43,076 bases of DNA from an uncultured Streptomycetaceae bacterium (lineage in GTDB: Bacteria > Pseudomonadota > Gammaproteobacteria > Burkholderiales > SG8-41). The position numbers were made by a program, and so were the translations under genes. The first letter of the stretch is position 1; each line of letters starts with the position of its first letter. The notes beneath the pieces are model-generated. The model had not been told where the DNA came from, made no database searches, and saw nothing but the letters and a program-made list of their open reading frames with translations. Below are positions 251-36,933 of the stretch, piece after piece. Where the stretch lies: the NCBI GenBank assembly GCA_964498105.1, contig CAZCGD010000566.1:1-43076 (forward strand), given 5' to 3'.

Positions 251-328
251 GTGTTTAGTTTTGAGTAAAAGACGGCCGCAAGAAAGCATGCTGCAACTCA
301 ACACTCAAAACTAAAAACTCAACACTGA
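236..328. repeat. AT-rich imperfect hairpin element, family A copy 1 (heptamer words TTTGAGT / ACTCAAA)
   Basis: Left arm agtgttaagttttgagtgtttagttttgagt (236-266). Right arm actcaacactcaaaactaaaaactcaacact (298-328). About 26 of 31 positions are complementary by hand alignment. The left arm overlaps the last ribF codons and its TGA. Confidence 0.75.
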
Positions 329-337
329 TCTTCTTCA

Positions 338-10434: not shown

Positions 10435-10961
10435 CAGAAGCACCTCTCCTGCTTCTGCACCGGCCGGCCGCTCAAATCGATGGTGATGCAGCGCGCATGC
10501 TGAACCTGGCCGCCGTTCGCCATGAGGCTGATCGAGGTCCCGCCGGTGGTGACGCGCCCGGCGCCGTTGAAGGTCACGCTCCCCGGACCGGAGATGATGA
10601 CCTTGGGCGTCCGGTCCTGGCGTCTCACCACCTCGCCGCTGGCATCGGAAATGGTCCAGCCGTCGGACCAGTTTCCTCCGCTGGGGGCTATGGTGACCGT
10701 GGTATTGCGGGTGACCGCTTCGCTGCGCGCCAGTACCAGACCCGCGAACACGTCGAAGCTCGCGGTTTTCACCCCCTGCGCCAGGATGATCTCGCGGAAG
10801 CTGGGGGTCGCGAGACCGATCAGGATCACCATCACCGACACGGTGACCATCGTCTCGGTGATCGTGAATCCGCGCGCGGTGGCCGGTGAGCGCCGGGCGC
10901 TGCGCCGCGCACTTGCCGGACGAGCCTGCTGTGGGCGCGAGTGGTACATCATGGCTACCAT
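10434..10961 (-). CDS. fimU: GspH-domain type IV minor pilin (FimT/FimU type, module 1)
   Basis: The sequence ...SPATARG|FTITETMVTVSVMVILIGLATPSF is followed by a GspH-like body (ARSEAV...VTI). The leader is unusually long (27-31 aa). There is no in-frame ATG/GTG/TTG nearer the cleavage site. Confidence 0.75.
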   Translation of the reverse strand: MVAMMYHSRPQQARPASARRSARRSPATARGFTITETMVTVSVMVILIGLATPSFREIILAQGVKTASFDVFAGLVLARSEAVTRNTTVTIAPSGGNWSDGWTISDASGEVVRRQDRTPKVIISGPGSVTFNGAGRVTTGGTSISLMANGGQVQHARCITIDLSGRPVQKQERCF

Positions 10962-11503
10962 CCCGCTTGCCCGTTGCGCGTCTTAGAGCCCTGGTGATCG
11001 AGCGAGAGCGCGCCATCCGGGATCTGCACCGAGCCCGTGATGGGGGTCGCGGTGATGGTGTAGGAGGGTGGCAGCGTGGGTGCTGCCGGACCGATCGTCA
11101 CGGTGTAGAACCTGGAGACGTCGACCGGCAACGCAAGATTGAGCGAGCCGATCGCGCCTGCTCCCGCGGCGTAGCTGCGCGCGTCGATCAGGTACTGCTG
11201 TTGGCGGGCGGCGACGTCGATCAAGAAGCTTTGGGCGGCGGCTCTGCGGCCCTTGCGCAGATGGTCCTGGTACGACGGATAGGCGATCGCCGCGAGTATG
11301 CCGACGATGGCCACCGCGATCATGAGCTCGATCAACGTGAATCCCGCCGCGGCGAGGCGCGCGCGCGCTGGACCGATTGCGGGCAGGGAAGACGTTGCGG
11401 AAGGAGATGCCGGTACTGCCGGAACGCGTGACGCCTCAGGGCGCTCGAGCCTTGACCATCTGCAGCAGGGTCGTGTCGACGGACTCCGTCGCTGTATTCT
11501 CAC
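10955..11503 (-). CDS. pilE: PilE-like type IV minor pilin (module 1); start codon unresolved
   Basis: The mature part is G|[40 protein letters not shown]..., PilE-like. The nearest in-frame canonical start is GTG 11503, which is preceded by GGGGGG. That gives a 54-aa leader. TTG 11545 is the start of the ORF-track call. Confidence 0.65.
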   Translation of the reverse strand: MRIQRRSPSTRPCCRWSRLERPEASRVPAVPASPSATSSLPAIGPARARLAAAGFTLIELMIAVAIVGILAAIAYPSYQDHLRKGRRAAAQSFLIDVAARQQQYLIDARSYAAGAGAIGSLNLALPVDVSRFYTVTIGPAAPTLPPSYTITATPITGSVQIPDGALSLDHQGSKTRNGQAGW

Positions 11504-11791
11504 GTCTGTCCCCCCGGACAAATATCTGGATCTCCGCAACCGCAAGAAGCATCGGTGTTTTCATGCTGTTTGCGGTTGCGAAATCAATCTAACAGAATGA
11601 CCCGGCGGAGCATGTTAATTACGGCACATCCAGGCAAAACTTTATGTGTTAAATACTTTACGAATCAAGGCGTAGGCGCAGGTATCTGACCGTGTTAACG
11701 GCGCGAGCAAGCGACCGCCCTCCGCCTCATGTTTCGGGCGTTGCGGAGGCAGTGGTCTAACCGCTGCTGAAGGGGTTCGGCTGACGCCGAT

Positions 11792-12343
11792 TCAGTCCGG
11801 TATCCTGCCGCACGGCAATCCCTTGCCGTAGCCGAATTCCACCAGCATGTAGCTCTTCACGGGGCCCTCCCTGGCGAGGGCCGGCTGGAACTTGAGCCCG
11901 GCCACGCTTTCCAGCGCGCTGCGTTCGAACGGCGGCGCGGCGCACACCACGTCGGTCTGCTCCAGCACTCCCTGCTCGTTGATCAGCAACTGCAGGAGGA
12001 CTGCGCCGTTTTTCTGGCTGAACTCTCCAGTGGGGTAGCGCAGTCTGGGCTCTTCCAGGGGTCGGCCCCGGGCCTTCAGCCGCGGCGAGCTGAAATGGAT
12101 GTAGCGCACGCCGCCGACTTCGATGTATTCCTCCTCGTTCTTGTACGGCTTGCTGTCCGTCAGCATCAGCACGCGGACTCTCACTTCGCTGGAACGCGCC
12201 GCCCGCGTCGGCGGCTCCTTCCTGGAAGTCGAGGCCTGCGCGAGGTGCGTGGCTGACACGGGTTCGGCGGAAGGCTGGGCGTGGCCCAGGCTGGTTGCCG
12301 CCAACGCAACCGCGGCGAGGATTCCGGACTTGTTTTTCAGCAT
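11792..12343 (-). CDS. Secreted protein with a TonB C-terminal-like domain
   Basis: ATG 12343 gives the signal peptide MLKNKSGILAAVALAATSLGHAQ. The C-terminus RLRYPTGEFSQKNGAVLLQLLINEQGVLEQTDVVCAAPPFERSALESVAGLKFQPALAREGPVKSYMLVEF matches the TonB_C pattern (YP..a...G.V.l...i...G.v....V......F..aa..a....kF.PA...G.pV). There is no TM anchor and no Pro-rich spacer. Confidence 0.6.
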   Translation of the reverse strand: MLKNKSGILAAVALAATSLGHAQPSAEPVSATHLAQASTSRKEPPTRAARSSEVRVRVLMLTDSKPYKNEEEYIEVGGVRYIHFSSPRLKARGRPLEEPRLRYPTGEFSQKNGAVLLQLLINEQGVLEQTDVVCAAPPFERSALESVAGLKFQPALAREGPVKSYMLVEFGYGKGLPCGRIPD

Positions 12344-12372
12344 AGCGATCAATCTGACATCAGAACCGAAAC

Positions 12373-12413: not shown

Positions 12414-15400
12414 TTACATCAACTCGCGCCAGGACACGCGCCGGCCGAGCGAGCCGCCCGATCCCGGGTTCACGCCGCCGGTCTTCTTCTGGCCGGTGAC
12501 GTCGATGCCGGTGTACTTTAACTGGCCGCTCGGCAGCCGGTAGACCACGAATCCGGCGGCGAGCGCCTGGCCCTGCAGTATCCCGACCACTCCGCCGGGC
12601 GCGGACGAGACGTACGATCCGGACCGGTAGTCGAACTGGTAGAAGAAACTGTTGCCGCCGCTGGAGCAGGCGTCGTCGTTGGGCTCGTTGGTCTCCACCA
12701 GCAGCACGCCGCGCACCAGCTGGATGTCGATGTTGACCCGCTCGCCCGGCGATTCGCTGGCCGGGTTGAAGTCCACGTACCAGCCGTTCTGCGTGCTCCA
12801 GGTGACGGAGTTGTTGCTTATCGTGCGGCTGGTCGAGTCGATCACGATCAGCGTTTGCTGCACCAGATTGGCGCCGGCGGAGCGGAGGATGCCGAGGTCG
12901 GTCCCGGTGTCCTTTATCGCGTACGTCGATTGCTGGTACGCCAGGTCGAGTGCCGGAATAAACGACGCCGGGTCCTGTAAATCGGACGAGCCGATGAAGC
13001 GTCCGGTCGCGACGTAGATCACGTTGAAGCCGGCATCGAAGCGCGTGATCTCGGGTTTCGTCGTGATGGACTGCGGCTTGGCGCCCGCGCCGACGCCGTC
13101 CATTGCCTGGCCGAGGCGCTGAGCGGTGACGCCGTCCGGAGCGGCGGCATTGGTGGACAGATCGAAGCGCCACACGTTGCCGAGCAGGTCTCCGCCGTAG
13201 ACGGTGGGCGTGGTGTTGTTCACCGCGAAGTTGGTTGCGAATCCGGCCATCTTGGCAAAGCCGCTCGGCGTCGTCGTGTTGCCCACGTTGGTGCCCGATA
13301 CCGCGGTGGCGGTCTTGCTGAGAATCGCGCCGGTGACCGCATCGAGCACGTAGAGATAGCCCCCGCCGTCGCCCGGAGCGACGTTGTTGTAGCCCGAGGA
13401 AACGATGACCACCCACTTGCCGTCGCTGGGCCGCTTGGTGATGGTCGCCTGACCGTAGGAGTAGCCGATGTCGGGATCGGAAATCGCGCACAGCGCCGGA
13501 TTCGAACAGATTTCCCACAGGGCCTTGACCCCGGTCGCGGTCGGGTCGGTGACGTCGAGCGCGTAGAAACCGCGCCCGCCGGCATTCAGCCCGCCCACCA
13601 GTATCGTCTTCCACGCGCCGCCGATGAATACGTCCATGGTGGTGGGCGAGCCGTCCACGAAGTAGCGGTGATTGGTGTCGTAATTGGTCGCCGCCAGCTT
13701 GTACAGCTCGGGCATCAGCATGCGCGGCACGTAGGTCCACAGCTCCTGTCCGCCGTCAGTAACAACCCCGGTTGCATCAACCGTGCCGCCGTGGAACGCG
13801 TGCAGCATGCCGTCATTGGCCGCGATCAACAGCACCTGCGGCCGGGTGGCAGCCGGTCCCGCCTTGAACGAGGGGTAATCGGGCGTTACCGCGTCGCCGT
13901 AGGCCAGGCTGGGCGGGGCGAGGAAGGCGGGCTTGGAGTTGACGGTATCGCCCATGATGTTATCGCGCCGGCGGAAGTAGCTGCCCTCGTGCTGCCGTTG
14001 CCCGCGCAGCCAGTTGACCAGGTTGTTCCCACTGTTGGCGATCGCCAGGTCGGTCGGCGACATCGCGCCGCACTGTGGCCAGATGAGGGGCGCGTCGGTG
14101 CACTGATCGTCGAACCACGCCGGCTCGGAACCCGCGAGCTTGCTGTAGAGGAAATCCTTGAGCCCGCGGCTCGCATCGGTGGGATCCAGGGTGAATATCG
14201 CCCTGGTGTCGGTCGCCGCTGCCGTTCTTGCGTTGAGCTGGGCGCCCGCCGTGCCCGCCGGCCACGCATTGCCGGCCACCACTGCGCCGGAGACCACGTC
14301 GATGCGTTCCGCAATGACCTCGCCGTCCCAGTTGACCGTGCGGTAGGTCGAGCTGTAGATGAAGTTGTTGGTCGGGGTGAGGTTCGGCGTGCTGGTCGCG
14401 GAGGACGCCGCGGCGCCGGTCGAGACCTTGATCGCGGCGAGCGCGGTAGTGAGCCCGCTCTGCAGCGAGTTCGGGTTTTTCGCGCTGAAATAGAGGCCGC
14501 GCCCGTTCACTGCGGCGTGCCACAGGTCGTCGAGCGCCGTGGGGGAATCGGCCACCGGCTGCGGCCAGTTGCAGGTGCCAGCGCCGCTGAAAGAGCAACC
14601 CGACGCGCCGGTGCGTATGTTGTCGAAATCGCTGTTGGTGCCCGTTGCCGTTTCGTAGTCGGAGCGGTAGTTCATCAGGCCGTCCAGCCCCAGGCCCAGC
14701 GTGAAGGTGACCATGTGCTGGTGCGACGCCGGGTCTTTCGGCGTCGTCGGCACGTTGTTCTTGGTGATCGAGAGCAGCCCCGTGGTGCGCAGGTCGTTCT
14801 TGTAGTAGTACATCGCCACGTCGGCGAGCGTGTTGCCAAAGCCGCCCGCGGTGGTGATAGTCGACGCGAGGCCGAGGGTGGTCGACGGGTTCGGAGTGAT
14901 CGTGACATCGGCGGTGGAAATCGTCGCCCCGGCCGTGCTCGGCGGGCCGAACGGGCCGGTCGCGGTCACCGTGGGGCCCGATCCCGTGAGCGAACTGTTG
15001 GTGCAGCCGCCGCCGGAATAGGTTGTAGTGACCCAGGTGCTGCCGTTAAGGCTGTAGTGATAGGCGTTGCTACCGCCGATGACGGCAGTTGCCGGCGAGA
15101 CGCCGTCGTAGGTCGTCACGGTCTCCGTCGCGCCGGTCTTCGTCTGCCGGATGTATTCCCTTCTGCTGCTGCTGCAAGTGCACGACCGGGACTGGCCATC
15201 GGCGAAGGTGACGCTGCTGGTGCCCGTGCAAACCCTTGTCTCCACCACGTCGACCGGCCTGGCGGTCTGCGATTGCAGCGCATCGCACGCCGTGATGTCC
15301 TGGAAGGTGTAGGTGGTGCCGGGCGTCGGGCTGGTGACGACATCGCGCGTTCTCTGTTTGATGCGCTTGAAGTTGTTCGAGCATCCGCAGTTGGTTTCCT

Positions 15401-17009
15401 GCGTGCCGGAAAAATTGGTGGTACTGTTACCGGTGCACACGACCTGCTCCAGCGTCCGATCCACGGTGCTGGGGACGCTCGTCTCCCCGAACCCGTCGAG
15501 CGTTCCGGTGGGGCGGCTGACGTAGGCCTCGGTCACGTTGTCCTGGTTGTCCATGTCGGTGGTGCCGTCCAACTTCTTGCCGCCGGAGCCGTTCCAGTAG
15601 CCGTCGGTGGTGAGCAGCGCGAAGTTCTGCTGGCAGCTGTACTGGATCGGGTCGTCCGGCATGAAACTGTTGATGCCATTGGTCTGGCCGGCGTAATGGC
15701 GCCCGACGCGGGACAGCGCCTGCCGCAGCGGCGTGCTGCTGGCCGGCGCCTGGCCGTAGAATTTGTCGTACCAGTTACCCTTGTGAACCGGCTCGAATTT
15801 GTCGATCTTGAGGTACTTCGTGCTGTCCGCGGCGTTGATGGTCACGAAGCCGATGCGGTAGCGGTCGTCCATGTCGGCGAACACGCGGCCGCCGGCGGTC
15901 TTCATGGTCTGCATGCGCGTGTGGTAGTAGGCGTGCCAGTTCGCGAAATTGGTCATTTCCTCGGTGTAGTCACAGACCGGCCGCGATGCGCAGTCCGTCC
16001 GGTTCGGGCGGCCGCTATAAGTCGTGACGGTGGATACGATGTCCGTGCGGACGAAGGTGCCGTAGCGCAGGTTCGTGTGCGAGCCGTCAAGTTTGGCCTG
16101 GCAACTGGCCGGGGAACCGCCGCTCACCACGGCGGTCTGGTTCGCGAGCGTGGCTGTCGTGCAATACCGGACCGCTGCTGGAATGGTGTTCACCCCGGTC
16201 GGCGTGGCCGACAGCACGCAGGTCGTCAGGTTGATGTCCGCGCAGTGCTCCCGCGGCAGGATCGTGTAGTAATACGGTCCGCCGAAACGCATCCTGATGT
16301 AGCGGAACGCCCCTGAGGCGGTCGAGATCGGCCAGCCGAAGCTGCCGTCGACGGGCGCCGTTGCGTTGCTGTAACGGAACGACGCGAGCAGCGTTGTGCC
16401 GGTGGTGTCGTAGCCATTGCGCCGGCAAGCCGTGTTGTCCGTGGCCGTTGAGTTGCTGGCAGTGCAGAACACCGGTTCAGGGAACAGGGTAGTCAGGTCA
16501 AACGTGTTGGTGCTGACGTAGGGATTGACCTTCACAGCGGTCCACGGCGAACCGAAGCCTGGCATCTCGGCGCCGGCCCGGTCCTTGCCCGGCTTGTAAG
16601 TGATCTGCGGGTTGTAGTAAATGGTGTTGAATTCGGCGGCGTACGCCGGAGGACCCACCGGCCACTCCTGCGCGGGGACGTGCCGGACGCTGTCCGTAGT
16701 CGGGGAGACTGTATTCGTGTTGCCGGAATCCAGTATACAGTTGGTGCTCGTCGCGCCGCCGCTACTGAGGACGTAGCTCTTGCAGGTATTCGAGCCGTTA
16801 ATGTTATCCGGCATGATGTAACGGCCCATGCTGCCCGAATCGTCGAGTATGAACATGAGATTGGGCAGCACCGTGGTCGAGGACGCGGTGCCGAGCGGCA
16901 CTGACGAGATATCGGTCTGCGCCGCGCCGGCGGGCACGGACGGCAACGCGAGCGTCGCCGACACAGCCAGCGCAAGGGAAACGAAGCGGACGGTTTTCAG
17001 GTGTTTCAT
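12414..17009 (-). CDS. pilY1: Large PilY1-family type IV pilus tip protein (module 2, 1531 aa)
   Basis: ATG 17009 is preceded by GGAGAG. The signal peptide is MKHLKTVRFVSLALAVSATLALPSVPAGAA. There is a vWA MIDAS motif LMFILDDSGSM plus FALLTTDGYWNG. The C-terminal PilY1 propeller signature is LLIAANDGMLHAFHGG...ELWTYVPRML...RYFVDGSPT...GFYALDVTDP...GDLLGNVWRFD. The ORF-track call of 1771 aa was trimmed. Confidence 0.85.
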   Translation of the reverse strand: MKHLKTVRFVSLALAVSATLALPSVPAGAAQTDISSVPLGTASSTTVLPNLMFILDDSGSMGRYIMPDNINGSNTCKSYVLSSGGATSTNCILDSGNTNTVSPTTDSVRHVPAQEWPVGPPAYAAEFNTIYYNPQITYKPGKDRAGAEMPGFGSPWTAVKVNPYVSTNTFDLTTLFPEPVFCTASNSTATDNTACRRNGYDTTGTTLLASFRYSNATAPVDGSFGWPISTASGAFRYIRMRFGGPYYYTILPREHCADINLTTCVLSATPTGVNTIPAAVRYCTTATLANQTAVVSGGSPASCQAKLDGSHTNLRYGTFVRTDIVSTVTTYSGRPNRTDCASRPVCDYTEEMTNFANWHAYYHTRMQTMKTAGGRVFADMDDRYRIGFVTINAADSTKYLKIDKFEPVHKGNWYDKFYGQAPASSTPLRQALSRVGRHYAGQTNGINSFMPDDPIQYSCQQNFALLTTDGYWNGSGGKKLDGTTDMDNQDNVTEAYVSRPTGTLDGFGETSVPSTVDRTLEQVVCTGNSTTNFSGTQETNCGCSNNFKRIKQRTRDVVTSPTPGTTYTFQDITACDALQSQTARPVDVVETRVCTGTSSVTFADGQSRSCTCSSSRREYIRQTKTGATETVTTYDGVSPATAVIGGSNAYHYSLNGSTWVTTTYSGGGCTNSSLTGSGPTVTATGPFGPPSTAGATISTADVTITPNPSTTLGLASTITTAGGFGNTLADVAMYYYKNDLRTTGLLSITKNNVPTTPKDPASHQHMVTFTLGLGLDGLMNYRSDYETATGTNSDFDNIRTGASGCSFSGAGTCNWPQPVADSPTALDDLWHAAVNGRGLYFSAKNPNSLQSGLTTALAAIKVSTGAAASSATSTPNLTPTNNFIYSSTYRTVNWDGEVIAERIDVVSGAVVAGNAWPAGTAGAQLNARTAAATDTRAIFTLDPTDASRGLKDFLYSKLAGSEPAWFDDQCTDAPLIWPQCGAMSPTDLAIANSGNNLVNWLRGQRQHEGSYFRRRDNIMGDTVNSKPAFLAPPSLAYGDAVTPDYPSFKAGPAATRPQVLLIAANDGMLHAFHGGTVDATGVVTDGGQELWTYVPRMLMPELYKLAATNYDTNHRYFVDGSPTTMDVFIGGAWKTILVGGLNAGGRGFYALDVTDPTATGVKALWEICSNPALCAISDPDIGYSYGQATITKRPSDGKWVVIVSSGYNNVAPGDGGGYLYVLDAVTGAILSKTATAVSGTNVGNTTTPSGFAKMAGFATNFAVNNTTPTVYGGDLLGNVWRFDLSTNAAAPDGVTAQRLGQAMDGVGAGAKPQSITTKPEITRFDAGFNVIYVATGRFIGSSDLQDPASFIPALDLAYQQSTYAIKDTGTDLGILRSAGANLVQQTLIVIDSTSRTISNNSVTWSTQNGWYVDFNPASESPGERVNIDIQLVRGVLLVETNEPNDDACSSGGNSFFYQFDYRSGSYVSSAPGGVVGILQGQALAAGFVVYRLPSGQLKYTGIDVTGQKKTGGVNPGSGGSLGRRVSWRELM

Positions 17010-17059
17010 GATGCTCTCCATGGGTATTCGGTGCGCGTTACACAGGATTTCAGAGCGTT

Positions 17060-17686
17060 TCATAGCGCGATTGCAACCATTGCCTGTATGTAGCTCACGC
17101 TGCTGCGCGGGCCCTGACTGCGCACGGTGATGCGGTAATACACCTTCGGGTCCTGCAGATAGCCCGGCGCGCCGACCGAGAAGCTTTCGCCCTCGCCCGG
17201 CGCCGGCGGCGTTGCCGCAGCGGCCGGGTTGTCCAGCGCGCACTGGTTGGATAGTCCGGTTGCCGCGCAGACGCCGTTGTACGGCACCTGGGGGCAATTG
17301 CACATGCGGTGGACCTGGTACGAGATCGTGTTGCCGGACGCGTCCGTGCCTACCGTGATCGAGGTGGCCCATGTCGCGGGGTTGGTCCAGACCGGACTGG
17401 CGATGCCGGAGTTGTAACCTTGGGGGGTATTGCTGATGCTCAGCACGGCCCGGTTCGCGAGCAGCCATTGATAAGCCACCTCGACGCCGTTGTCCGAGGA
17501 CTGGACCGTGCCCTGCTTGAAGGCGAGGTTGCCGGCGATCAGCGTCGCGGTGTCCACCGAGCGCATGATGGCGATGCCGGCCAGCGTCATCGCGACCAGG
17601 ACAATGAGGGCGATGAACAGCACCGCGCCAGATTGACGGTTCCGTGTTCCGGGTTCCGTGTTCCGAGTTGAACGCAACGCGTGCAT
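17060..17686 (-). CDS. pilX: Type IV minor pilin PilX (module 2)
   Basis: MHALRSTRNTEPGTRNRQSG|AVLFIALIVLVAMTLAGIAIMRS is a PilX-type N-terminus. This is the first ATG after the pilW-2 stop. The gene lies between pilW-2 and pilY1-2. Confidence 0.7.
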   Translation of the reverse strand: MHALRSTRNTEPGTRNRQSGAVLFIALIVLVAMTLAGIAIMRSVDTATLIAGNLAFKQGTVQSSDNGVEVAYQWLLANRAVLSISNTPQGYNSGIASPVWTNPATWATSITVGTDASGNTISYQVHRMCNCPQVPYNGVCAATGLSNQCALDNPAAAATPPAPGEGESFSVGAPGYLQDPKVYYRITVRSQGPRSSVSYIQAMVAIAL

Positions 17687-17800
17687 GACCAGACGCGGCG
17701 CGCTTGAGGTTCGGCTGCCCGGTGCGCATCCCGAACTGGCAACCCGGAGCCCCGAACTGGGGGAGTGGAACCCTGAACCCTGAACCCGGAACCCGGAACT
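17638..17800. repeat. Heptamer-array hairpin bracketing the pilX-2 start codon
   Basis: In RNA sense there are ten tandem heptamers of consensus GGTTCNG (17800 down to 17731). Four tandem NCGGAAC heptamers follow (17666 down to 17638) inside codons 7-16 of pilX-2. The two arrays are mutually complementary. Confidence 0.8.
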
Positions 17801-17808
17801 GAGGAATT

Positions 17809-18927
17809 TCACTGTGGCCTCCAGATCATGTTGCGCAGCGGGATCACCGTCTGGAACACCTTGTAGCGGTAATGCCGCTCGTCGGCAGTCAGCGTCCATA
17901 CCGGGCCGGTGGTCGTCGGCACGGCCGCGGAATCCTCCCACAGACGGAGGGTGGCCGGACTGACCTCAATCTTCTCGTAGAGGCTCGAGCGCGCGACGAT
18001 CGCGATGCGCACCGCCAGTACCGCCGCCCAGCCGGCGGTGTTGGTGGGGGTGACTTCATCGAACAGGTCCACGATGCCGTCGTTGTTGGTGTCTTTCCCG
18101 TACTGGGCCTGCAACTGGGCGATGCCGTCGTAGAGCGGCATGGCCGTCGCCGACCCAAGCGACTGCGACACCACCTGTGCGTTAGGTAGTGGTACCGAGA
18201 GTGTCTTGATGATCGGCGTGTCGCCGAGGTTGAACACCTTGCCGCTGGTGGTGTAAGCAGTTCCCAACCCGGCGGGATTGTTGTAGCGCGTGGGCACCGT
18301 GGCGCCGGCGGCATTCACGAAAGTGCCTGGCTGGACGTTGAGCCTGGTGCTGTCGCCGGTTGCCGGAGGAACCTCGCTGATTTGCGCCAGCGTGCATGGT
18401 TTACCTGCTTCGGCGAATACCACCACGTCGCCCTTCCTGAATCCGAAGGGGTTGAAGATCTTGAAGAAATCATCGGTGGTTCCAAGGCTGTTGACACCGA
18501 GGGTCACCGGCGCGGGCAGCTGGTCGCCGTTGCCATACATCACCATGATGGTGTCCGGCGAACCGGCGACGCCCGGCGTGCTGCCGGCGCCCTGGGTGAT
18601 GACGACGGGCGCCAGCGTCCACGGCGCAATCGCGGCGCTGGTCTGCTCGTCCCAGCCCTGCGCGGCACACCCCACCAGATCGGCTGCGTTGAATCCGTAA
18701 CCTGACAACCGCACCTCGCGCTCGATCGAGAACAGCGCGAGCGTGCCGTTGGTCTGGGCTTCGCCGCCGGACGTGGTGGTGCGCTTCTGCCCTTCGAAAA
18801 CCGCGAACACCTGGAAGATCGCGAGGCTCGCGATAATGCCGATCGCGGCCGCGACCAGCAGCTCGACCAGGCTCATGCCGCGGGAGCGGCCGCGGGGCGC
18901 ACTGTTCCTGTTTGAAATCCTGTCCAT
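17809..18927 (-). CDS. pilW: Type IV minor pilin PilW (module 2)
   Basis: MDRISNRNSAPRGRSRG|MSLVELLVAAAIGIIASLAIF is a prepilin motif with Glu5. The protein is 372 aa. Confidence 0.8.
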   Translation of the reverse strand: MDRISNRNSAPRGRSRGMSLVELLVAAAIGIIASLAIFQVFAVFEGQKRTTTSGGEAQTNGTLALFSIEREVRLSGYGFNAADLVGCAAQGWDEQTSAAIAPWTLAPVVITQGAGSTPGVAGSPDTIMVMYGNGDQLPAPVTLGVNSLGTTDDFFKIFNPFGFRKGDVVVFAEAGKPCTLAQISEVPPATGDSTRLNVQPGTFVNAAGATVPTRYNNPAGLGTAYTTSGKVFNLGDTPIIKTLSVPLPNAQVVSQSLGSATAMPLYDGIAQLQAQYGKDTNNDGIVDLFDEVTPTNTAGWAAVLAVRIAIVARSSLYEKIEVSPATLRLWEDSAAVPTTTGPVWTLTADERHYRYKVFQTVIPLRNMIWRPQ

Positions 18928-19924: not shown

Positions 19925-20362
19925 TCAGCAGCTGCCGTCTTTGCGCCGCACCCAGCAGGCGCTGCCCGCGCCGGCCCAGCCCGCGTCGACTGTCGTCGTC
20001 GCGCGCGCATTCGCGTCATTCAAAGTGTAGACGAAGGCGGAAAGGCTCTCGCTGGCCTTGCCGGTGGCGGTTACCGTGTAGGTTTGCGACGGTGCCGCGC
20101 CCGGCGCGCACCCGAAATCGAAATACTTCGAAATCGGCGCTATTGCCCCGCAGCCATTCAGTCCGGCGCCGTCGTAGCGGCGATTGTCCTGGTAGAACTG
20201 CTCCATGCGCACGCGGAAATCGGCGAGCCCGGTGAAAGCCTCGGTGAGCTTCGCGCGCCGCGCGTACTCGTTGTATGCCGGCAGCGCGACGCCCGCCAGT
20301 ATGCCGATGATGGCGATCGTGATCATCAGTTCGATCAGCGTGAATCCGCGTGACTGCTTCAT
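19925..20362 (-). CDS. pilE: PilE-like type IV pilin (module 2)
   Basis: MKQSRG|[37 protein letters not shown] has a short class-a leader. AGGAG lies upstream of ATG 20362. A C-terminal Cys pair is present. Confidence 0.8.
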
Positions 20363-20740
20363 TGCTCGCTCCTTTAAGCGTGATGAACGATAGAGGGTTT
20401 CCAGACTGGAATCCAACGTCGTCCGACCGGAGGCCGATACCGGGGAACGAACGGGTTGGTGTGAATTACTGCCGGGATTTTCAAGCAGCCTGTCATAACT
20501 TCCCCAAGCGCTTGATTTGCCGCCCGGAGCGCAGAAGCGCGCCATCGGCGCAAAATCGCGCGCGTGATTTTATTCACGCGGCAGGTGGTTGCGCCAAAGT
20601 GGATCCGCGCAACACCATGACATAGAGGTAGGCTGGCGTGCCATCCGCGGCAGCGCTTCGCCCGTGGCCGTCAGGATGCCCGGCGGGCAGGGCTTCCGGT
20701 GCGTGGCAGAGGGCGTAATTAGACTTGGTCCAATTAGTCG

Positions 20741-24484: not shown

Positions 24485-24487
24485 GAC

Positions 24488-24593
24488 AGTTTTGAATGTT
24501 GAATGTTGAATGTTGAGTGCGTAGTGTTGAGTTAAGTGACGCAAACAAGGCGCACCTGACACTCAAAATTCAAAACTCAAAACTCAAAATTTG
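24488..24593. repeat. AT-rich imperfect hairpin element, family A copy 2
   Basis: Left arm heptamers: TTTGAAT GTTGAAT GTTGAAT GTTGAGT GCGTAGT GTTGAGT. Right arm heptamers: ACTCAAA ATTCAAA ACTCAAA ACTCAAA. The element starts 4 nt after the protease TGA. Confidence 0.8.
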
Positions 24594-24625
24594 TTCTAGC
24601 GGGCAAAGCAACTTGCCCGCTAGAA
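24594..24625. terminator. Perfect 13-bp GC-containing hairpin at a convergent gene junction
   Basis: ttctagcgggcaa-agcaac-ttgcccgctagaa. It overlaps the TAG stop (24620-24622) of the acyl-CoA dehydrogenase gene. Confidence 0.5.
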
Positions 24626-25786
24626 CGTGCCCATGCCGGCGACGCCGGTGGCGAGGTCCATCTGCTCGACCAGCTTCTTGCCGACCAGGTTGCGCAGGGT
24701 TTCGGTGGTGCCGCCGCCGAGGCTGCCGTAGCGCGCGCCGCGGAAGTAACGCGAGACCGGGAACTCGTCGGTAAAGCCGTAGCCGCCGTGGACCTGGATC
24801 GCCTCTGATGTTACCCGTATGCTCATCTCGTTGCAGTAGATCTTGGCCATCGCCGCGAGCGTGGGGTCGGGGAACTTGTCGCCGCTGACGGCGGCGCGAT
24901 AGAGCAGCCCGCGCCCCGCCTCGATCTCGACGTACATGTCGGCGACCTTCCAGCGCAGGCCCTGGAAGTCGCCGATCTTCTGCCCGAACGCGGAGCGGTC
25001 GCGCATGTAGCGCACGGCTTCTTCCAGCGCGCCCTCGGCAAGCCCCAGGCAGATCGCTGGATTCAAGCAGCGCTGGGTGTTGAACGCCGACAGCAGTTTT
25101 TTCATGCCGTCTTCCTTCAGCACCAGGTTTTCCAGCGGCAGCTCGACGTTGTCGAAGACCACCTCGGACAGGTACTCGCCGCCCATGGTGTGGAAGCTTG
25201 ACTTGACGGTCATGCCTTTCGCGCCGCCCGGCACCAGCACGCAGCCGATGCCTTTGGCCCCCGGCACTTTGTTGACCCGCGTGAACACCACGAACATCTC
25301 GGCGATGTCGGCGCGCGAGATCAGGGTCTTCACGCCGTTTACGACCACACGGTCGCCCTTGATGTGGGTGTTGGTGGTGTAGCTCGGCACATCGGTGCCG
25401 GCGTTGGGCTCGGTCATGCAGATGGCGAGGATGGCTTCTCCGGTCGCGACGCGCGGCAGGATGCGCCGTTTGATCGGTTCCGGCGCGTAGGTAGAGATGA
25501 CGCGCGTCTGCACACCGAGCTCGCCCAGCGCCGCCATCGCTGTTACGTAGCACACCTTGCCGATCTCCTCCAGCACCAGCACCGTGTCGAGGATGCCGAG
25601 GCCGGAGCCGCCGTACTCCTGCGGCACCGACATGCCGAGCACGCCGATCTCGGCCAGCTGCTTCATGTTCTCCGCCGGCCAGGTGCCGTCGAGGTACTGG
25701 ATCGCCCGCCTCTTGAAGTCTTTCTGGCACACGCGGCGCACGCTGTCCACGAACGCGCGCTGCTCTTCGCTGATGCTGAAATCCAT
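24620..25786 (-). CDS. Acyl-CoA dehydrogenase
   Basis: 388 aa starting MDFSISEEQRAFVDSVRRV. It has ACAD N-terminal, middle and C-terminal domain patterns (EYGGSG, CMTEPNAGTD, IQVHGGYGF..E.PV.RY.R). Confidence 0.9.
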   Translation of the reverse strand: MDFSISEEQRAFVDSVRRVCQKDFKRRAIQYLDGTWPAENMKQLAEIGVLGMSVPQEYGGSGLGILDTVLVLEEIGKVCYVTAMAALGELGVQTRVISTYAPEPIKRRILPRVATGEAILAICMTEPNAGTDVPSYTTNTHIKGDRVVVNGVKTLISRADIAEMFVVFTRVNKVPGAKGIGCVLVPGGAKGMTVKSSFHTMGGEYLSEVVFDNVELPLENLVLKEDGMKKLLSAFNTQRCLNPAICLGLAEGALEEAVRYMRDRSAFGQKIGDFQGLRWKVADMYVEIEAGRGLLYRAAVSGDKFPDPTLAAMAKIYCNEMSIRVTSEAIQVHGGYGFTDEFPVSRYFRGARYGSLGGGTTETLRNLVGKKLVEQMDLATGVAGMGTF

Positions 25787-29105: not shown

Positions 29106-30356
29106 TTATGCCTTCGCTTTCGATGATAGGGATTCCTTGTCGTAGCCCGCGACCCGCGCATAGCCGTGGGTGAGCGCGGCCAGCTCCTCGCGGCTGATCA
29201 CCTCGTTGATGTCCTTGAACGGCTGGTCGCCGGTCCTCAGGTAGACCTCGCGCAGGACCGCGTCGGGCGGGTTCTTGCGGTTCATCCTGACGATACTGGC
29301 CGTCGCCTCGAGCCGCTGCGCTTCGTACTGCTTCAGCGCCGCCACCGGGTCGCCCTGGGAACTCAGGCATTCCGCGAGGGCCCTGGCGTCGAGGATCGCC
29401 TGGCCGGCGCCGTTGGAGCCGCGCGGCACCATCGGGTGCGCCGCGTCGCCCAGCAGCGTGATGCGGCCGTGGCTCCACCGCGGCAGCGGTTCCTGGTCCA
29501 CCATCGGGTACTCGAGGATGGCCTCGGCGTTGCGCATCATATCCGCCACGTCGAGCCAGTCGAACTTCCAGTCCTCGAAGACGTGGATGAAATCCTCCAG
29601 CTTGCCGGCGCGGTTCCAGTCCCGGCGCTTGTAATCTGGGGTGTAGAACTCGCCGACCCAGCTCACCAGCTGGCGGCCCTGCGCGTCGCGCTGGTTGCGG
29701 ATCGGATAGATGATCACTTTGCCGGATTCGAGCCAGCCGGCGCGCACGAAGCTCTCGCCCGTGAGGAACGGCTTCCACCAGGTCGCGCCGCGCCACATGT
29801 TGACGCCCGAGTAGATCGGGTCGCCTTCGTCCGGGTAGAACTGCTTGCGGAGCACCGAATGGATGCCGTCGCAACTCACGACGGCTGCGCCGCGTTGCGG
29901 CGGCAGTGCCTCGCCGGTGACGGTGCTGGCGAAATGGACCGTCACGCCGCCGCCGTCCTGCTCTGCTCGCGTGGAGCGCCAGCCGGTGACTATCCGGTCG
30001 GCGCCGATGCGGTTCCTGCACGCATCGAGCAGCACCACTTGCAGGTCGCCCCGGTGGATGGAGAACTGGGGCGTGTCGTAGCCGGCGTGGCGGCCGCAGG
30101 GCTCGCTGTAGATCAACTGGCCGTGGCGGTTGTAGAAAACCGCTTCGCGTGTCGTCACCGCGACCTTCTCCAGCGCGTCCAGCAGCCCGAGCGCCGCGAG
30201 TTCTTTCGTCGCGTGAGGGAGGAGGTTGATGCCGAGGCCCAGCCCCTTCACCTCCGCGGCCAGCTCGTAGACGCGGCACGGGATGCCGGCCCGGTGCAGG
30301 GTCAGGGCCAGCGTCAATCCGCCAATGCCGGCGCCGATGATGATGACGTCGTTCAT
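29106..30356 (-). CDS. Class A FAD-dependent aromatic monooxygenase (PhzS / salicylate-hydroxylase-like)
   Basis: MNDVIIIGAGIGGLTLAL (GxGxxG), GADGIHS-like CDGIHSVLR, and LLGDAAHPMVPRGSNGAGQAILDA. By eye the overall pattern is close to PhzS. There is an 11-nt gap to the dioxygenase gene. Confidence 0.85.
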   Translation of the reverse strand: MNDVIIIGAGIGGLTLALTLHRAGIPCRVYELAAEVKGLGLGINLLPHATKELAALGLLDALEKVAVTTREAVFYNRHGQLIYSEPCGRHAGYDTPQFSIHRGDLQVVLLDACRNRIGADRIVTGWRSTRAEQDGGGVTVHFASTVTGEALPPQRGAAVVSCDGIHSVLRKQFYPDEGDPIYSGVNMWRGATWWKPFLTGESFVRAGWLESGKVIIYPIRNQRDAQGRQLVSWVGEFYTPDYKRRDWNRAGKLEDFIHVFEDWKFDWLDVADMMRNAEAILEYPMVDQEPLPRWSHGRITLLGDAAHPMVPRGSNGAGQAILDARALAECLSSQGDPVAALKQYEAQRLEATASIVRMNRKNPPDAVLREVYLRTGDQPFKDINEVISREELAALTHGYARVAGYDKESLSSKAKA

Positions 30357-30430
30357 CGCGGTCTATTTTATCCAACGGACACGCTAGAATCGCGCTTTCC
30401 GAAACCGGAGCGGACCGGGCGGGCAGGAGC

Positions 30431-31690
30431 ATGGAAAACGTGGTGATCGTGGGTGGCGGCATCTGCGGATTGACGCTGGCCCTCAACCTGCACGCGCGGG
30501 GCATTCCGTGCCGGGTGTACGAGCGCGCCGGGGAAGTCAGGGAGCTGGGGGTCGGCATCACCTTGCTGCCGCACGCGATGCGCGAGTTCTCGGCGCTCGG
30601 CCTGCAGGAACGGCTGCTGACGGCGGGGGTCGAGAACCGGGAGAGCTGCTTCTACAACCGCTTCGGCCAGTTCATCTACAAGGAGCCGCGCGGCACGTTC
30701 GGCGGCTATCCCTTTCCCGAGGTCGGCATACACCGCGGCCGGCTGCACCGCATCCTGTACCAGGCGGTGCTCGAGCGCCTCGGGCCGGAGCGCGTGCTGA
30801 TGGACCGCCAGTGCGCGCGCGTCGAGCAGGACGGCGCGTGCGCCGCGGTGCATTTCACGGAGACCTCCACCGGGCGTAGCCTCGCGCCGGTACGGGCGCG
30901 GGCGGTGATTGCGTGCGACGGCATCAACTCGGTGCTGCGCCGGCAGTTCTACCCGGACGAGGCCGTGGCATTCGCGGGGATCAACACCTGGCGCGGCGTG
31001 ACTCGCCGCAAGCCCATCCTGACCGGCCGCAGCTTCATGCGCATCGGCTCCATCCTGACCGGCAAGCTGGTGGTCTACCCGATCATCGACGACGTGGACG
31101 GGGAGGGCAACCAGCTCGTCAACTGGATGGCCGAGATCAAGCAGGACACCTGCGAGAAGAACGACTGGAACAAGCCCGGCGACAGCGCCGGCTTCATCCA
31201 CCTCTACGAGGGCTGGAAATTCGACTGGCTCGACGTGGGCGAATTGATCCGCAGCGCCGAGACCATACTGGAGTACCCGATGGTGGACCGCGACCCGGTG
31301 GGGCGCTGGACGTTCGGGCGTGTCACGCTGGCGGGCGACGCGGCGCACCCGATGTATCCGCGCGGCTCGAACGGCGCGGCGCAGGCGGCGATAGACGCGC
31401 GTTCTCTCGCCGAATGCCTGGCAGCGGCGCGGGACCCGGCGGAGGCGCTCGCCGCCTACGAGCAGACCCGGCGCGAGACCACCGCGAAGATCGTGCGCGC
31501 CAACCGCGCGCACCCGCCGGACTTCATCAACATCAAGGTCGAGGAACTGGTGGGCGACCAACCCTTCGACGATCTTGACCGCTACATCACCCAGGCCGAG
31601 CTGCACGCACTGTCCGAGAACTACAAGCGGATCGCGGGCTTCTCCCTGTCCGACGTTTCCGGCGCGCCGCGACCGACGGCAAACAGCTGA
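30431..31690 (+). CDS. Class A FAD-dependent aromatic monooxygenase, paralog of 29106-30356
   Basis: MENVVIVGGGICGLTLAL, CDGINSVLR and LAGDAAHPMYPRGSNGAAQAAIDA. AGGAG lies before the ATG. The protein is colinear with the divergent neighbour along its whole length. Confidence 0.85.
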   Translation: MENVVIVGGGICGLTLALNLHARGIPCRVYERAGEVRELGVGITLLPHAMREFSALGLQERLLTAGVENRESCFYNRFGQFIYKEPRGTFGGYPFPEVGIHRGRLHRILYQAVLERLGPERVLMDRQCARVEQDGACAAVHFTETSTGRSLAPVRARAVIACDGINSVLRRQFYPDEAVAFAGINTWRGVTRRKPILTGRSFMRIGSILTGKLVVYPIIDDVDGEGNQLVNWMAEIKQDTCEKNDWNKPGDSAGFIHLYEGWKFDWLDVGELIRSAETILEYPMVDRDPVGRWTFGRVTLAGDAAHPMYPRGSNGAAQAAIDARSLAECLAAARDPAEALAAYEQTRRETTAKIVRANRAHPPDFINIKVEELVGDQPFDDLDRYITQAELHALSENYKRIAGFSLSDVSGAPRPTANS

Positions 31691-31762: not shown

Positions 31763-33196
31763 ATGGCCACCAACACCCGCCCCAACCCTGACAAGGCTCT
31801 CCTGCAGATCGCCGACTACGTCGACCGCTATCCGGTCAAGAGCCCGCTCGCGCTGGAAACCGCGCGACTGGCATTGATCGACAGCCTCGGCTGCGGCTTC
31901 GAGGCGCTGTCCTATCCCGCGTGCACCAAGCTGCTGGGGCCGGTGGTGCCGGGGACCCTCGTGCCGAACGGCGCGCGCGTGCCGGGCACGTCCTACACGC
32001 TCGACCCGGAGCGCGCGACGTTCAACATCGGCGCGCTGGTGCGCTGGCTCGATTTCAACGACGCCTTTTACGGCGCGACGGTGATCCACCCGTCGGACAC
32101 CTTCTGCGGCATTCTGGCGGTGGCCGACTGGTTGTCCCGCACGCGCGCGGCGCAGGGCCAGAAGCCGCTCACCATGCGCGACGTGCTGGAGTCGGCGGTG
32201 AAGTCCTACGAGATCATGGGCGGGCTCGCGCTCGAGAATGGGTTTTCCGCGGTCGGGCTCGATCACACCATCCTGGTGAAGATCGCCATCACGCCGGTGG
32301 TGACGAAGCTGCTTGGCGGCACCCACGAGGAGATCGTCAACGCCCTGTCGCAGGCGTGGGTGGACGGGCACGCGCTCGCGACCTTCCGCCGCAAGCCCAA
32401 TACCGGCCCGCGCAAGTCGTGGGCGGCGGCCGACGCGGCGAGCCGCGGCGTGCGCCTGGCGTTGATGGCGGTGAAGGGCGAGATCGGCTGTCCGTCGGCG
32501 CTGACCGCGAAGACCTGGGGCTTCTACCACGTGCTGTTCAAGGACAGGCCGTTCAGGTTCCAGCGGCCGTACGGCACCTACGTCGTGGAGAACGTGCTGT
32601 TCAAGCTGCCGTACCCGACGGCGTTTCATGGCCAGAGCGGGGTCGAGGCGGCGATCAAGCTGCACCCGCTGGTCAAGGACCGGCTCGACGACGTGAAGCG
32701 CGTCGAAGGCAAGTGCCACAACTCGACGATGGTGATCCTTGACAAGTCGGGGCCGCTCCATAACCCGGCGGACCGCGACCACTGCATGCAGTACATGATG
32801 GCGATCGGCCTGATCTACGGCACCATGACCGCCGAGCACTACGAAGACCACATCGCGGCCGACCCGCGTATCGACGCGCTGCGCGCGAAGATGCGGCTCT
32901 CCGAGTCGGCCCAGTACGAGCGCGAATACCACGATCCCGCCAAGCGCACCAATGCCAACTCGATCCAGGTATTTTTCAAGGACGGCAGCAAGACGCCGCT
33001 GTCCGAGGTGCTGTATCCGCTGGGCCACCGCCGGCGGCGCCAGGAGGGCATCCCGGCGCTGATGGAGAAATTCGAGCGCAACGTCGCGCGCGTGTTTGCC
33101 GCCAAGCAGCGCGACGCGATCCTCAAGGCCTGCCTCGACCAGAAGCGGCTGGAGGCGATGCCGGTGAACGAGTTCATAGACCTGTTGGTTGTTTAA
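31763..33196 (+). CDS. prpD: 2-methylcitrate dehydratase
   Basis: 477 aa. By eye it is colinear with E. coli PrpD: DSLGCGFEALSYPACTKLLGPVVPGT, IHPSD, GLDH..LVK, RKSWAA.DA.SRGVRLAL, NPADRDHCMQYM, PLGHRRRR.EGIP. Confidence 0.85.
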   Translation: MATNTRPNPDKALLQIADYVDRYPVKSPLALETARLALIDSLGCGFEALSYPACTKLLGPVVPGTLVPNGARVPGTSYTLDPERATFNIGALVRWLDFNDAFYGATVIHPSDTFCGILAVADWLSRTRAAQGQKPLTMRDVLESAVKSYEIMGGLALENGFSAVGLDHTILVKIAITPVVTKLLGGTHEEIVNALSQAWVDGHALATFRRKPNTGPRKSWAAADAASRGVRLALMAVKGEIGCPSALTAKTWGFYHVLFKDRPFRFQRPYGTYVVENVLFKLPYPTAFHGQSGVEAAIKLHPLVKDRLDDVKRVEGKCHNSTMVILDKSGPLHNPADRDHCMQYMMAIGLIYGTMTAEHYEDHIAADPRIDALRAKMRLSESAQYEREYHDPAKRTNANSIQVFFKDGSKTPLSEVLYPLGHRRRRQEGIPALMEKFERNVARVFAAKQRDAILKACLDQKRLEAMPVNEFIDLLVV

Positions 33197-33200
33197 ATTC

Positions 33201-33304
33201 AATAGACAGGATTAACAGGATTAACAAGATTCAAATAATGAAAATAAGTTTTTGTTTCGTTTTTCTTGATCTAATCCTGTAAATCTTGTAAATCCTGTCC
33301 ATTC
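33201..33304. repeat. 104-bp AT-rich hairpin element, family B copy 1 (9-nt words ACAGGATTA / TAATCCTGT)
   Basis: It begins aatagacaggattaacaggattaacaagatt and ends ctaatcctgtaaatcttgtaaatcctgtccattc, followed by a T-run (tttggttttttt). It starts 5 nt after the prpD TAA. Confidence 0.8.
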
Positions 33305-33325
33305 TTTGGTTTTTTTGGAGAAGGC

Positions 33326-34204: not shown

Positions 34205-34342
34205 GGGATACAAACAAGCACCAAGTCTCAAGCACCAAATTACAAACAAGCACCAAGTCTCAAGCACTAAGCACCAGACGTTTGGAGATTGGAATTTGAA
34301 TTTTGTTTGTGATTTGGCGTTTGGGATTTGGGATTTGAGATC
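34205..34342. repeat. AT-rich repeat element, family C copy 1
   Basis: The word AAGCAC(C/T) occurs 5 times, within a 26-bp direct repeat ACAAACAAGCACCAAGTCTCAAGCAC x2. The heptamers TTTGGCG TTTGGGA TTTGGGA TTTGAGA follow. The element starts at the base after the TGA. Confidence 0.8.
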
Positions 34343-34473
34343 TATGACGGATGAGGGGTTCGGCTACCGGCCTGCAGAATTAGTTGCCGGTTTGATGCTG
34401 TCATGGCACATTGCGGACGGCGGCCCGGGCAGCGCTTCCCGGGGCGATTAATGCGTCAAATAGGAGCATCCAC

Positions 34474-36822: not shown

Positions 36823-36921
36823 ACAGGATTAACAGGATTTACAAGATCAAGAATCAAGAACAGGTTAGTGTTTGCGGTTTCTGTTTTTGAATCTTGTTAA
36901 TCATGTAAATCCTGTCTATTC
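36818..36921. repeat. 104-bp AT-rich hairpin element, family B copy 2
   Basis: It has a perfect 13-bp terminal inverted repeat AATAGACAGGATT / AATCCTGTCTATT. Length and ends match copy 1. The element supplies the TAG stop (36820-36822) of the CMD gene. Confidence 0.85.
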
Positions 36922-36933
36922 GTTGTTTCGACG

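Follow-up and report, generated by a model that had tools for sequence, protein, structure and literature searches.

REP/BIME elements are dispersed, imperfect extragenic palindromes that lie between the genes of operons, can fold in mRNA and are linked to the RAYT transposase; they are not made of tandem heptamers. Heptamers in paired arrays have been described in Xanthomonas, with 70-75 convergent pairs of inverted GGGAATC arrays per genome (PMC4692102), and in Geobacter metallireducens, where paired heptanucleotide-repeat sites were proposed as regulator sites and a GGACCGG family also occurs inside genes (PMC2700814). Other short repeats act at the 5' ends of genes for surface proteins: the opa genes of Neisseria carry CTCTT coding repeats in the region for the leader peptide (PMC3960869), and the (ATCTTTC)n array of hmw1A in Haemophilus influenzae takes part in a hairpin in the 5' untranslated region (5'-UTR) that is processed by RNase III (PMC12721329). 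Class III signal peptides are cytoplasmic leaders cut off after a conserved Gly (PMC4471445). Here we analyse a pair of inverted heptamer arrays at the 5' end of pilX-2, a gene in the second of two minor-pilin modules on a 43,076-nt stretch of contig CAZCGD010000566.1 (hereafter the window), which comes from an uncultured bacterium of the Burkholderiales (SG8-41). With a probability of roughly 0.7, we consider that PilX-2 is a 250-aa precursor starting at GTG 17812 and that the arrays are an old palindromic heptamer element lying in frame within a 62-residue leader that is cleaved after Gly62.

The signals for this start lie at the very end of pilW-2 (C-terminus NMIWRPQ, stop TGA at 17811-17809 by translation of the 3' end). 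The stop region reads GGAGG-CCACA-GTGA, with a GTG codon that follows a perfect Shine-Dalgarno (SD) sequence after 5 nt and overlaps the stop. This GTG (17812-17810) is in frame with the ATG at 17686-17684 on the minus strand, 122 nt past the pilW-2 stop, and no stop codon intervenes; the computed duplex with the anti-SD sequence reaches -9.3 kcal/mol before the GTG versus +1.2 kcal/mol, that is, no binding, before the ATG. The original prediction had described the 122 nt as an untranslated gap that set module 2 apart from module 1, and had placed a ribosome-binding site (RBS) in a segment looped out by the arrays. Neither holds: the gap is an open frame in phase with pilX, the looped segment carries no RBS, and both modules are organised alike around a GTGA overlap, the junction in module 1 being GGAGGGACCGGCCGTGA, with the layout GGAGGGACCGGCC-GTGA and the leader VNAGIRRQEG↓ATLVIAL (the arrow marks the cleavage site). 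Translated from the GTG, the PilX-2 leader comprises 62 aa and ends in Gly62 (codon 17629-17627), after which the prepilin peptidase is predicted to cut (RQSG↓AVLFIAL, i.e. G↓AVLFIAL); the Gly is followed by ~20-21 hydrophobic residues (RQSG↓AVLFIALIVLVAMTLAGIAIM), and PilX-2 has no Glu5. The Pfam PilX_N match to the 208-aa version of the protein begins just ahead of the cleavage-motif Gly and is weak (residues 19-54, E 0.0041, below the gathering cutoff).

PilX-2 has 2,518 database homologues, nearly all from uncultured Burkholderiales and Betaproteobacteria, in which the mature N-terminus (G↓AVLFIALIVLVAMTLAGIAIMRSVDT) is nearly invariant and the leaders are hypervariable. A subset of them is annotated with long N-termini that include ...SGFRVPGSGF... 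and ...TRNTEPGTRN..., the translations of both arrays. Metagenomes were scanned with a pattern (AAYATGNTNTGGAGGCCNNNRTGA) anchored only on the 3' end of pilW and an overlapping RTGA start, which avoids gene-call bias. Wherever the mature motif was located, the overlapping start (ATG or GTG) was in frame 0 with mature PilX and the sequence between them was free of stops (87/87 junctions). They represent 76 distinct leaders with 18-222 nt before the Gly codon, corresponding to 7-75 aa; the commonest junction leader has 39 nt, and the family mode is 14 aa. Of the distinct leaders, 18 measure 78 nt or more; all of these are open in frame 0 and none in frame +1. Because relatives place the arrays inside the gene, where they encode a long discarded leader, the element does not look like an untranslated on/off switch, and the comparison is most simply explained if the arrays form a translated portion of a disposable leader. 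Across the homologues P0001-P0120, the first ~40 mature residues are near-identical, the remaining sequence is only 64-86% identical, and the leader just upstream of the mature N-terminus is the most variable part of the protein.

Lengths and start signals in the relatives point the same way. Array-bearing leaders come in nine lengths (84, 96, 105, 108, 144, 147, 165, 183 and 222 nt), all divisible by 3. In the aligned groups, L007 equals L138 and L172 plus exactly 21 nt, or three heptamers, within the 5' array, and L168 equals L171, L096 and L120 plus 21 nt, again three heptamers of that array; judging from the alignments, the two differences are independent. The homologous GGTTCNN arrays of relatives begin 12-19 nt past the start codon and count from 3 to ~12 units. 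Of the 23 long-leader relatives examined, 22 have GGAGG ahead of their first start codon (-9.3 kcal/mol; L168 is weaker, at -6.4), versus a best SD of no better than -5.8 kcal/mol before any internal start among the 23. Three leaders (L098, L144 and L170) are without any internal in-frame start codon, and L120 has ACG at the position of the window's ATG 17686. Substitutions in the leaders spread evenly over the three codon positions, and the GGTTC core persists whichever of the three frames it falls in, a signal at the nucleotide level; selection therefore appears to keep the frame and not the peptide, and peptide-level selection on the repeat-encoded leader (SGFRVPGS / TRNTEPG) was rejected on the uniformity of the substitutions. 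The longest leader, of 75 residues, occurs in L009 (4430-4665)/L090 and also in L079; within this leader a ~78-nt block encoding SRFDLDFCASAPETRN... is duplicated between the arrays.

In the window itself, the original prediction of ten tandem GGTTCNG heptamers upstream of the ATG proved half right: the array is real and has five clean units, and the next five are degenerate, CTCCCCC being no match at all. The degenerate stretch falls inside a 36-nt segment that is missing, by alignment, from the closest leader (L169). The four predicted CGGAAC(A/C) units downstream of the ATG are present as described; this 3' arm is a perfect 14-mer repeated twice, is also present in L169 and is coding whichever of the two starts is used. 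Tandem Repeats Finder reports GGAACCC at 4.7 copies (17767-17799) and GTTCCGT at 4.4 copies (17639-17669), and an inverted-repeat search pairs 31-nt arms (17639-17669 with 17769-17799) at 84% complementarity, with a looser 43-nt pair at 72%. Matches to GGTTCNNGGTTC with at most one mismatch number 8 in the window versus 2.98 ± 1.72 in shuffles; seven of the eight lie at the pilX-2 site, which alone accounts for the enrichment. No GGTTCNN array lies outside the pilX leader in the window or among 167 related loci, so that these arrays do not form a dispersed family there. The 7-nt unit, not a multiple of 3, sits inside the open reading frame (ORF) that opens at GTG 17812, and it was correctly foreseen that slippage by one unit in the coding arm would shift the pilX frame, which, from a start at the GTG, would apply to both arrays. 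The tracts of the window are short, five and four units with no more than two identical neighbours and one perfect doubled 14-mer; the 5' array of L170 has ~12 units, four of them identical and adjacent.

Set beside the described systems, the pilX element as a sequence object belongs, to judge by its repeats, with the paired heptamer arrays of Xanthomonas and Geobacter: it too consists of two short tandem-heptamer arrays on opposite strands a short distance apart, elements of this kind recur (here within 43 kb), and the window also has GGGATTT/AAATCCC arrays (34313-34343 and 38540-38563) that recall the GGGAATC of Xanthomonas. In each of those families a single unit serves the whole genome and nearly all copies are intergenic. 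The elements of the window, by contrast, each have their own unit, and the pilX element is coding and in frame, its site being conserved among PilX proteins that share only 64-71% identity. In manner of working it would be most like the opa coding repeats, since both are short repeats whose unit is not a multiple of 3, lie in the part of an ORF that encodes the cleaved N-terminal leader of a surface-structure protein and shift the frame when the unit number changes. The ON/OFF polymorphism that defines opa was not found at pilX-2: opa tracts are long and perfect, switch at ~1e-3 and are OFF at many loci, whereas pilX-2 has 4-5 imperfect units and all copies seen are ON. Also unlike opa, pilX-2 has two inverted arrays, and its product is a type IV minor pilin with a class III leader. 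With hmw1A, pilX-2 shares a heptamer array that supplies one side of a long mRNA hairpin at or ahead of the start of an adhesin-related gene. For hmw1A the hairpin and the repeat number have been linked, whereas the pilX-2 hairpin is a prediction; the hmw1A repeats lie in the 5'-UTR opposite a G-rich non-repeat arm, whereas both pilX-2 arms are repeat arrays and both would be translated. A 5'-UTR element of the hmw1A type was accordingly rejected, the array region being open and in frame after an SD and a GTG, with the frame conserved in relatives. With REP/BIME elements the pilX element shares the capacity of a palindrome at an operon junction to fold in mRNA; it differs in its tandem heptamers and coding location, and neither REP trait, an extragenic position or a link to RAYT, is seen here. 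The resemblance to class III signal peptides lies in the leader that ends in Gly ahead of ~21 hydrophobic residues. In a limited literature search, neither prepilin leaders of 62-75 residues nor any that inverted heptamer arrays encode turned up.

Computation bears out the original prediction that the arrays complement each other and should pair. They do so in the minimum-free-energy fold, with ATG 17686 in the enclosed loop, and one leader half binds the other in a duplex far more stable than expected (-72.4 versus -53.5 ± 4.9 kcal/mol, z -3.8, 0/300 shuffles as good). The expectation that the structure would exceed shuffled controls held for this duplex and for the leader folded alone to a lesser degree (z -2.17, 3/200 shuffles as good), and failed for the whole region of 211 nt, whose stability is marginal (-88.8 versus -81.4 ± 5.0, z -1.47, dinucleotide shuffles). 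Leader halves also pair in relatives, with z of -4.65 in L169, -4.0 in L171, -3.6 in L170, -3.4 in L172, -3.1 in L007, -2.3 in L168 and -2.0 in L138; these lineages have PilX proteins only 64-71% identical to that of the window, and by this comparison the palindromic leader-coding region is recurrent in several diverged lineages. Signs of selection on the hairpin structure are weak. What lasts across lineages, in either arm, is the GTTCC/GGAAC core alone, and the 2-nt linkers drift; inspection of the aligned groups, whose arms differ by whole units between lineages, brought out no compensatory linker changes (AG versus AC in L172; GA/AA versus CG/GC in L007). The SD at 17822-17818 lies outside the main stem on its 5' side, where only a weak outer extension (the 43-nt arms) reaches it; this extension is not evident in L169. 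An RBS-sequestering hairpin was rejected on these grounds, the ATG 17686 in the loop having no SD, the SD upstream lying outside the main stem and compensatory changes being absent. A -1 ribosomal frameshift site was rejected as well, as the units do not fit X XXY YYZ. Rfam gave no gathering-score match in the window except a tRNA, and around the site chance-level hits only at E up to 10; no intrinsic terminator, U-tract or promoter was found at the pilW-pilX junction.

Population data were drawn from assembled Logan contigs of sediment and cave metagenomes and from one RNA run, all of which give consensus sequences only. Against the window, contigs from three samples (X1, X2 and X3) show 0-1 differences and are free of indels; those of a 96%-identical strain (X24) carry 8 substitutions over 17595-17800, again without an indel, and have the same unit numbers. 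A contig reveals how many units the 5' arm has only if it extends to the edge of that arm, as contigs from all four do (17797-17800). Neither OFF-frame nor length-variant strain copies were found among the 87 junctions, the 23 long leaders and these four sets of consensus contigs, in which minority variants are invisible. Length heterogeneity of the kind anticipated was seen among relatives, in steps of 21 nt, and not among these consensus contigs of strains. The proposal that expression is conditional or phase-variable finds nothing to support it in these data, with all junctions and long leaders in frame; the on/off switch idea is unproven and only weakly favoured. Database proteins with short N-termini (P0018, P0073 and P0085) were considered as OFF variants and rejected, as they reflect start choices of the gene caller and have the upstream ATG intact. 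Contigs of the RNA run span 17339-17799 and 17770-18101, which is compatible with a continuous pilW-pilX transcript or with carry-over of DNA. Word depth at the 5' array (17766-17800) is 9,531 in run X1 versus ~13 in the flanks; array depths hundreds of times those of the flanks recur across runs X1-X5, X19, X23 and X24, and contigs break inside the array because its 31-mer space is common to very many loci. Arrays of (GGTTCCG)n occur in 17 unrelated IMG/VR viral contigs (L175-L191) with GC from 0.43 to 0.66, often beside other heptamer arrays, and since so many unrelated contigs of varied GC contain it, GGTTCCG appears to be a common slippage product in nature.

We propose that an inverted heptamer-array element became fixed in frame within the leader-coding part of pilX. 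Translation would start at GTG 17812-17810, after the GGAGG at 17822-17818, and read through both arrays, and the prepilin peptidase would remove the 62-residue cytoplasmic leader after Gly62 (RQSG↓AVLF). Because the leader is discarded, its sequence would be almost unconstrained and the insert tolerated. The leader would grow and shrink by slippage of 7-nt units, of which only frame-restoring variants survive, the steps observed being 21 nt; the 7- and 14-nt repeats would remain a latent frameshift-prone tract and a source of null alleles. A stem of about -70 kcal/mol that starts 13 nt past the start codon would hinder initiation by free 30S subunits and may tie PilX synthesis, by translational coupling, to ribosomes terminating on pilW. 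If this is true, prepilin-type leaders can reach 62-75 residues through 7-nt repeat expansion alone, filtered to in-frame (21-nt) changes, and the locus would be a natural example of a disposable protein segment absorbing repeat expansion. It would also add an example from a coding region to the paired heptamer arrays of Xanthomonas, Geobacter and the present lineage, a class that is little understood, and it exposes an annotation trap: the start of the PilX family overlaps the pilW stop, and gene calls at an internal ATG create a false intergenic region.

Several points weigh against this account. The database gene call starts at ATG 17686 (P0001, 208 aa), which yields a 20-aa leader, the same as in P0002, the closest relative of the mature protein. 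Many long-leader relatives retain an in-frame ATG between or after the arms, and dual initiation may occur in them. Described class III leaders measure 6-26 aa (PMC4471445), far below the 62 aa of PilX-2 and the 75 aa of L079/L090, and the family mode is itself 14. Frame +2 is open too in 11 of the 18 long leaders; heptamer arrays being stop-free in every frame, only the divisibility of the lengths and the spacers carry a frame signal. We infer both the use of the GTG and the cleavage of the leader from sequence. As for the hairpin, two-arm leaders L096, L120, L079 and L090 show no significant pairing and leaders of 84-108 nt keep the 5' array and have no 3' arm, so the structure is not universally maintained, and the coupling role that we give it is one that we purely infer.

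Other explanations have to be set against the same observations. Were the 122 nt an intercistronic spacer and ATG 17686 the start, the upstream array could pair with codons 7-16 and loop out or occlude the initiation region, making expression conditional. This would suit an ATG that is in frame and was picked by the gene caller, a leader as long as that of P0002 and arms that pair around the ATG with a duplex z of -3.8, yet the ATG has no SD (+1.2 kcal/mol) and a strong one stands with the GTGA overlap at the pilW stop, as in module 1. Frame and length are moreover conserved over 87 junctions in steps of 21 nt, L120 has ACG where the ATG should be and L098, L144 and L170 have no internal start, the stability of the whole region is not significantly above that of shuffles (z -1.47), and the site matches no Rfam family; we consider such a switch quite unlikely. 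A contingency locus, in which tracts inside the ORF slip by 7 or 14 nt at an appreciable rate and, as in opa, turn PilX-2 ON and OFF, together with PilY1-2 through coupling or polarity, is unlikely, although it accepts the coding position. In its favour are a unit that is not a multiple of 3 within an ORF, the 3 to ~12 units of the 5' array among relatives, the perfect doubled 14-mer of the 3' arm, a hairpin that could promote slippage as reported for hmw1A (PMC12721329) and the precedent of coding repeats in a leader (PMC3960869). It is opposed by the ON frame in 87/87 junctions and 23/23 long leaders, by apparently OFF short gene calls that come down to start-codon choices, by the indel-free contigs of X1, X2, X3 and X24 (17595-17800), consensus sequences that hide minority variants, and by tracts that, unlike those of classic contingency loci, are short and imperfect with no more than two identical adjacent units.

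A role in mRNA processing or stability, as a REP-type stem-loop or an RNase III site that sets different levels of fimU-pilVW and pilX-pilY1, would explain a long, near-continuous predicted stem directly after the pilW stop and would agree with the position of similar arrays of the window, which follow or separate genes at places suited to terminators or stabilisers, and with the action of RNase III on the heptamer-repeat hairpin of hmw1A (PMC12721329). We hold it to be very unlikely: cutting within the arms would separate the start codon from the body of pilX, the site has no U-tract and is not terminator-like, the hairpin is missing in many relatives that keep the 5' array, and no linker change is compensatory. 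Least probable of all is that the GTTCC/GGAAC cores, 7 bp apart and in opposite orientation, are iteron- or operator-like sites for a DNA-binding protein, with RNA pairing incidental. The drift of the 2-nt linkers beside a 5-nt core that alone is conserved between lineages in both arms, the 21 bp or two helical turns spanned by three units, and the regulator sites proposed for the paired heptanucleotides of Geobacter (PMC2700814) would fit this, but no candidate binding protein is known, the motif is restricted to the pilX leader in 167 related loci, and the same arrays in unrelated viral contigs with GC from 0.43 to 0.66 fit a common slippage product better. A more ambitious version of the translated element, which we think unlikely, makes the arrays a conserved cis-acting module for the second set of minor pilins and PilY1 at the pilus tip in uncultured soil and sediment Burkholderiales. 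Its translated hairpin would gate pilX to the ribosomes of pilW and might be a nuclease target, 7-nt slips would give a heritable OFF state that a 21-nt change resets, and hmw-type and opa-type control would be combined in one leader. If the hairpin or the repeats do regulate PilX and PilY1, this would be a new route of control over the pilus tip complex in environmental bacteria.

The translated leader also has to be seen against the rest of the window, which contains six further inverted-array elements made of tandem 7- or 9-mers, each pair with its own unit, all of them between unrelated genes (Table 1). Multi-register inverted repeats number seven in the window versus none in 6 shuffled windows; six of the seven are periodic arrays, namely that of pilX-2 and five between unrelated genes, and the element at 38533-38665 is additional. 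A 148-nt inverted repeat at 30209-30578 (76% complementary) was rejected as an array element, as it joins the 5' ends of divergent paralogous genes for FAD-dependent monooxygenases. The units differ between elements (GGTTCCG; TTGAGTN; ACAGGATTA; CAAGCAC/GGGATTT), on which ground a DNA-uptake-sequence function, suggested by the ComP_DUS-like pilins nearby, was rejected. Two pairs of elements are copies of each other: 33190-33325 and 36800-36933 are direct copies of a ~120-nt element (81% identical), and 34205-34350 and 38533-38665 are inverted copies (84% identical). Arrays elsewhere on the contig were seen in the window and on the SG8_41-type contig L009/L090, which carries the 75-aa leader, and none was found in 341 kb of relatives with short PilX leaders. 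Since array-bearing contigs have others and the short-leader relatives have none, the pilX element most likely reflects a propensity of the whole lineage for inverted heptamer arrays, of which it is a local case tolerated in a disposable leader. That the lineage has an active mechanism seeding such arrays genome-wide is a further, unlikely possibility.

Table 1 Positions of the pilX-2 element, its neighbouring genes and the other inverted arrays of the window.
Feature	Position	Strand	Basis or remark
pilW-2 coding sequence	17809..18927	-	ORF list; Pfam PilW 1.2e-18 and N_methyl; translation of the 3' end
Shine-Dalgarno GGAGG	17818..17822	-	Within the last pilW-2 codons, 5 nt upstream of GTG 17812
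Proposed pilX-2 start GTG	17810..17812	-	Overlaps the pilW-2 stop (GTGA), as in module 1
pilX-2 as re-annotated, 250 aa (proposed)	17060..17812	-	Translation from the GTG; 208-aa version from ATG 17686
pilX-2 leader-coding region, 62 codons (VKFLSSGFRVQGSGFHSPSSGLRVASSGCAPGSRTSSAPRLVMHALRSTRNTEPGTRNRQSG; proposed)	17627..17812	-	Translation
5' arm, AGTTCCG GGTTCCG GGTTCAG GGTTCAG GGTTCCA (five clean heptamers)	17766..17800	-	+13 to +47 from the GTG
Degenerate continuation of the 5' array, CTCCCCC AGTTCGG GGCTCCG GGTTGCC AGTTCGG	17731..17765	-	Sequence; CTCCCCC not a match
Inter-arm spacer, predicted hairpin loop with its own small stem-loops	17670..17730	-	Fold; holds ATG 17686-17684, without SD
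3' arm, CGGAACA CGGAACC CGGAACA CGGAACC	17638..17665	-	Sequence and repeat finding; encodes TRNTEPGTRN
pilY1-2, downstream in the same operon	12414..17057	-	Pfam T4P_PilY1 3.8e-34
Inverted 7/14-mer arrays GAGTGTTAAGTTTT x2 ... AACTCAACACTCAAAACTAAAAACTCAACACT	228-334		Ends 12 nt before the ileS start at 338
Inverted arrays (TTGAATG)n / (ACTCAAA)n	24485-24592		Between convergent genes for an HtrA-like protease and an acyl-CoA dehydrogenase
Inverted 9-mer arrays ACAGGATTA / TAATCCTGT	33197-33308		Within copy 33190-33325, just upstream of a prpB-like gene of the PEP-mutase family
Inverted 9-mer arrays ACAGGATTA / TAATCCTGT	36807-36931		Within copy 36800-36933, just upstream of an acyl-CoA synthetase gene
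CAAGCAC/CAAGTCT and GGGATTT heptamer arrays	34220-34332		Within 34205-34350, just downstream of the prpB-like gene
CAAGCAC/CAAGTCT and GGGATTT heptamer arrays	38540-38660		Within 38533-38665, just downstream of the acyl-CoA synthetase gene

Some details of these other elements may be added. The prpB-like and acyl-CoA synthetase genes are each flanked by the same pair of elements, and the GGGATTT unit resembles the G-rich heptamers of Xanthomonas and Nostoc. No obvious SD lies between the element at 228-334 and the ileS start. Directly after the element at 24485-24592 comes a GC-rich perfect hairpin at 24594-24627 (TTCTAGCGGGCAA...TTGCCCGCTAGAA), which has the appearance of the true bidirectional terminator. 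Another inverted heptamer pair, CGTGAAA / TTTCACG, stands at 224-407 of L009/L090, downstream of an unrelated gene.

The surroundings of pilX-2 offer a few further observations. The ORF that follows pilY1-2 (11792-12352, minus strand) matches a TonB C-terminal domain (E 8e-6) at a place where a pilE-like pilin might be expected. Both modules open with a minor pilin that matches the ComP_DUS domain of DNA-uptake-sequence receptors (10955-11545 and 19925-20545, minus strand), which hints at a role of these pili in DNA uptake. In relatives, PilX-2-like and PilX-1-like modules lie a few kb apart on one contig (L005/L039 and L004/L040, each pair on the same contig), and the two-module arrangement is thus conserved.

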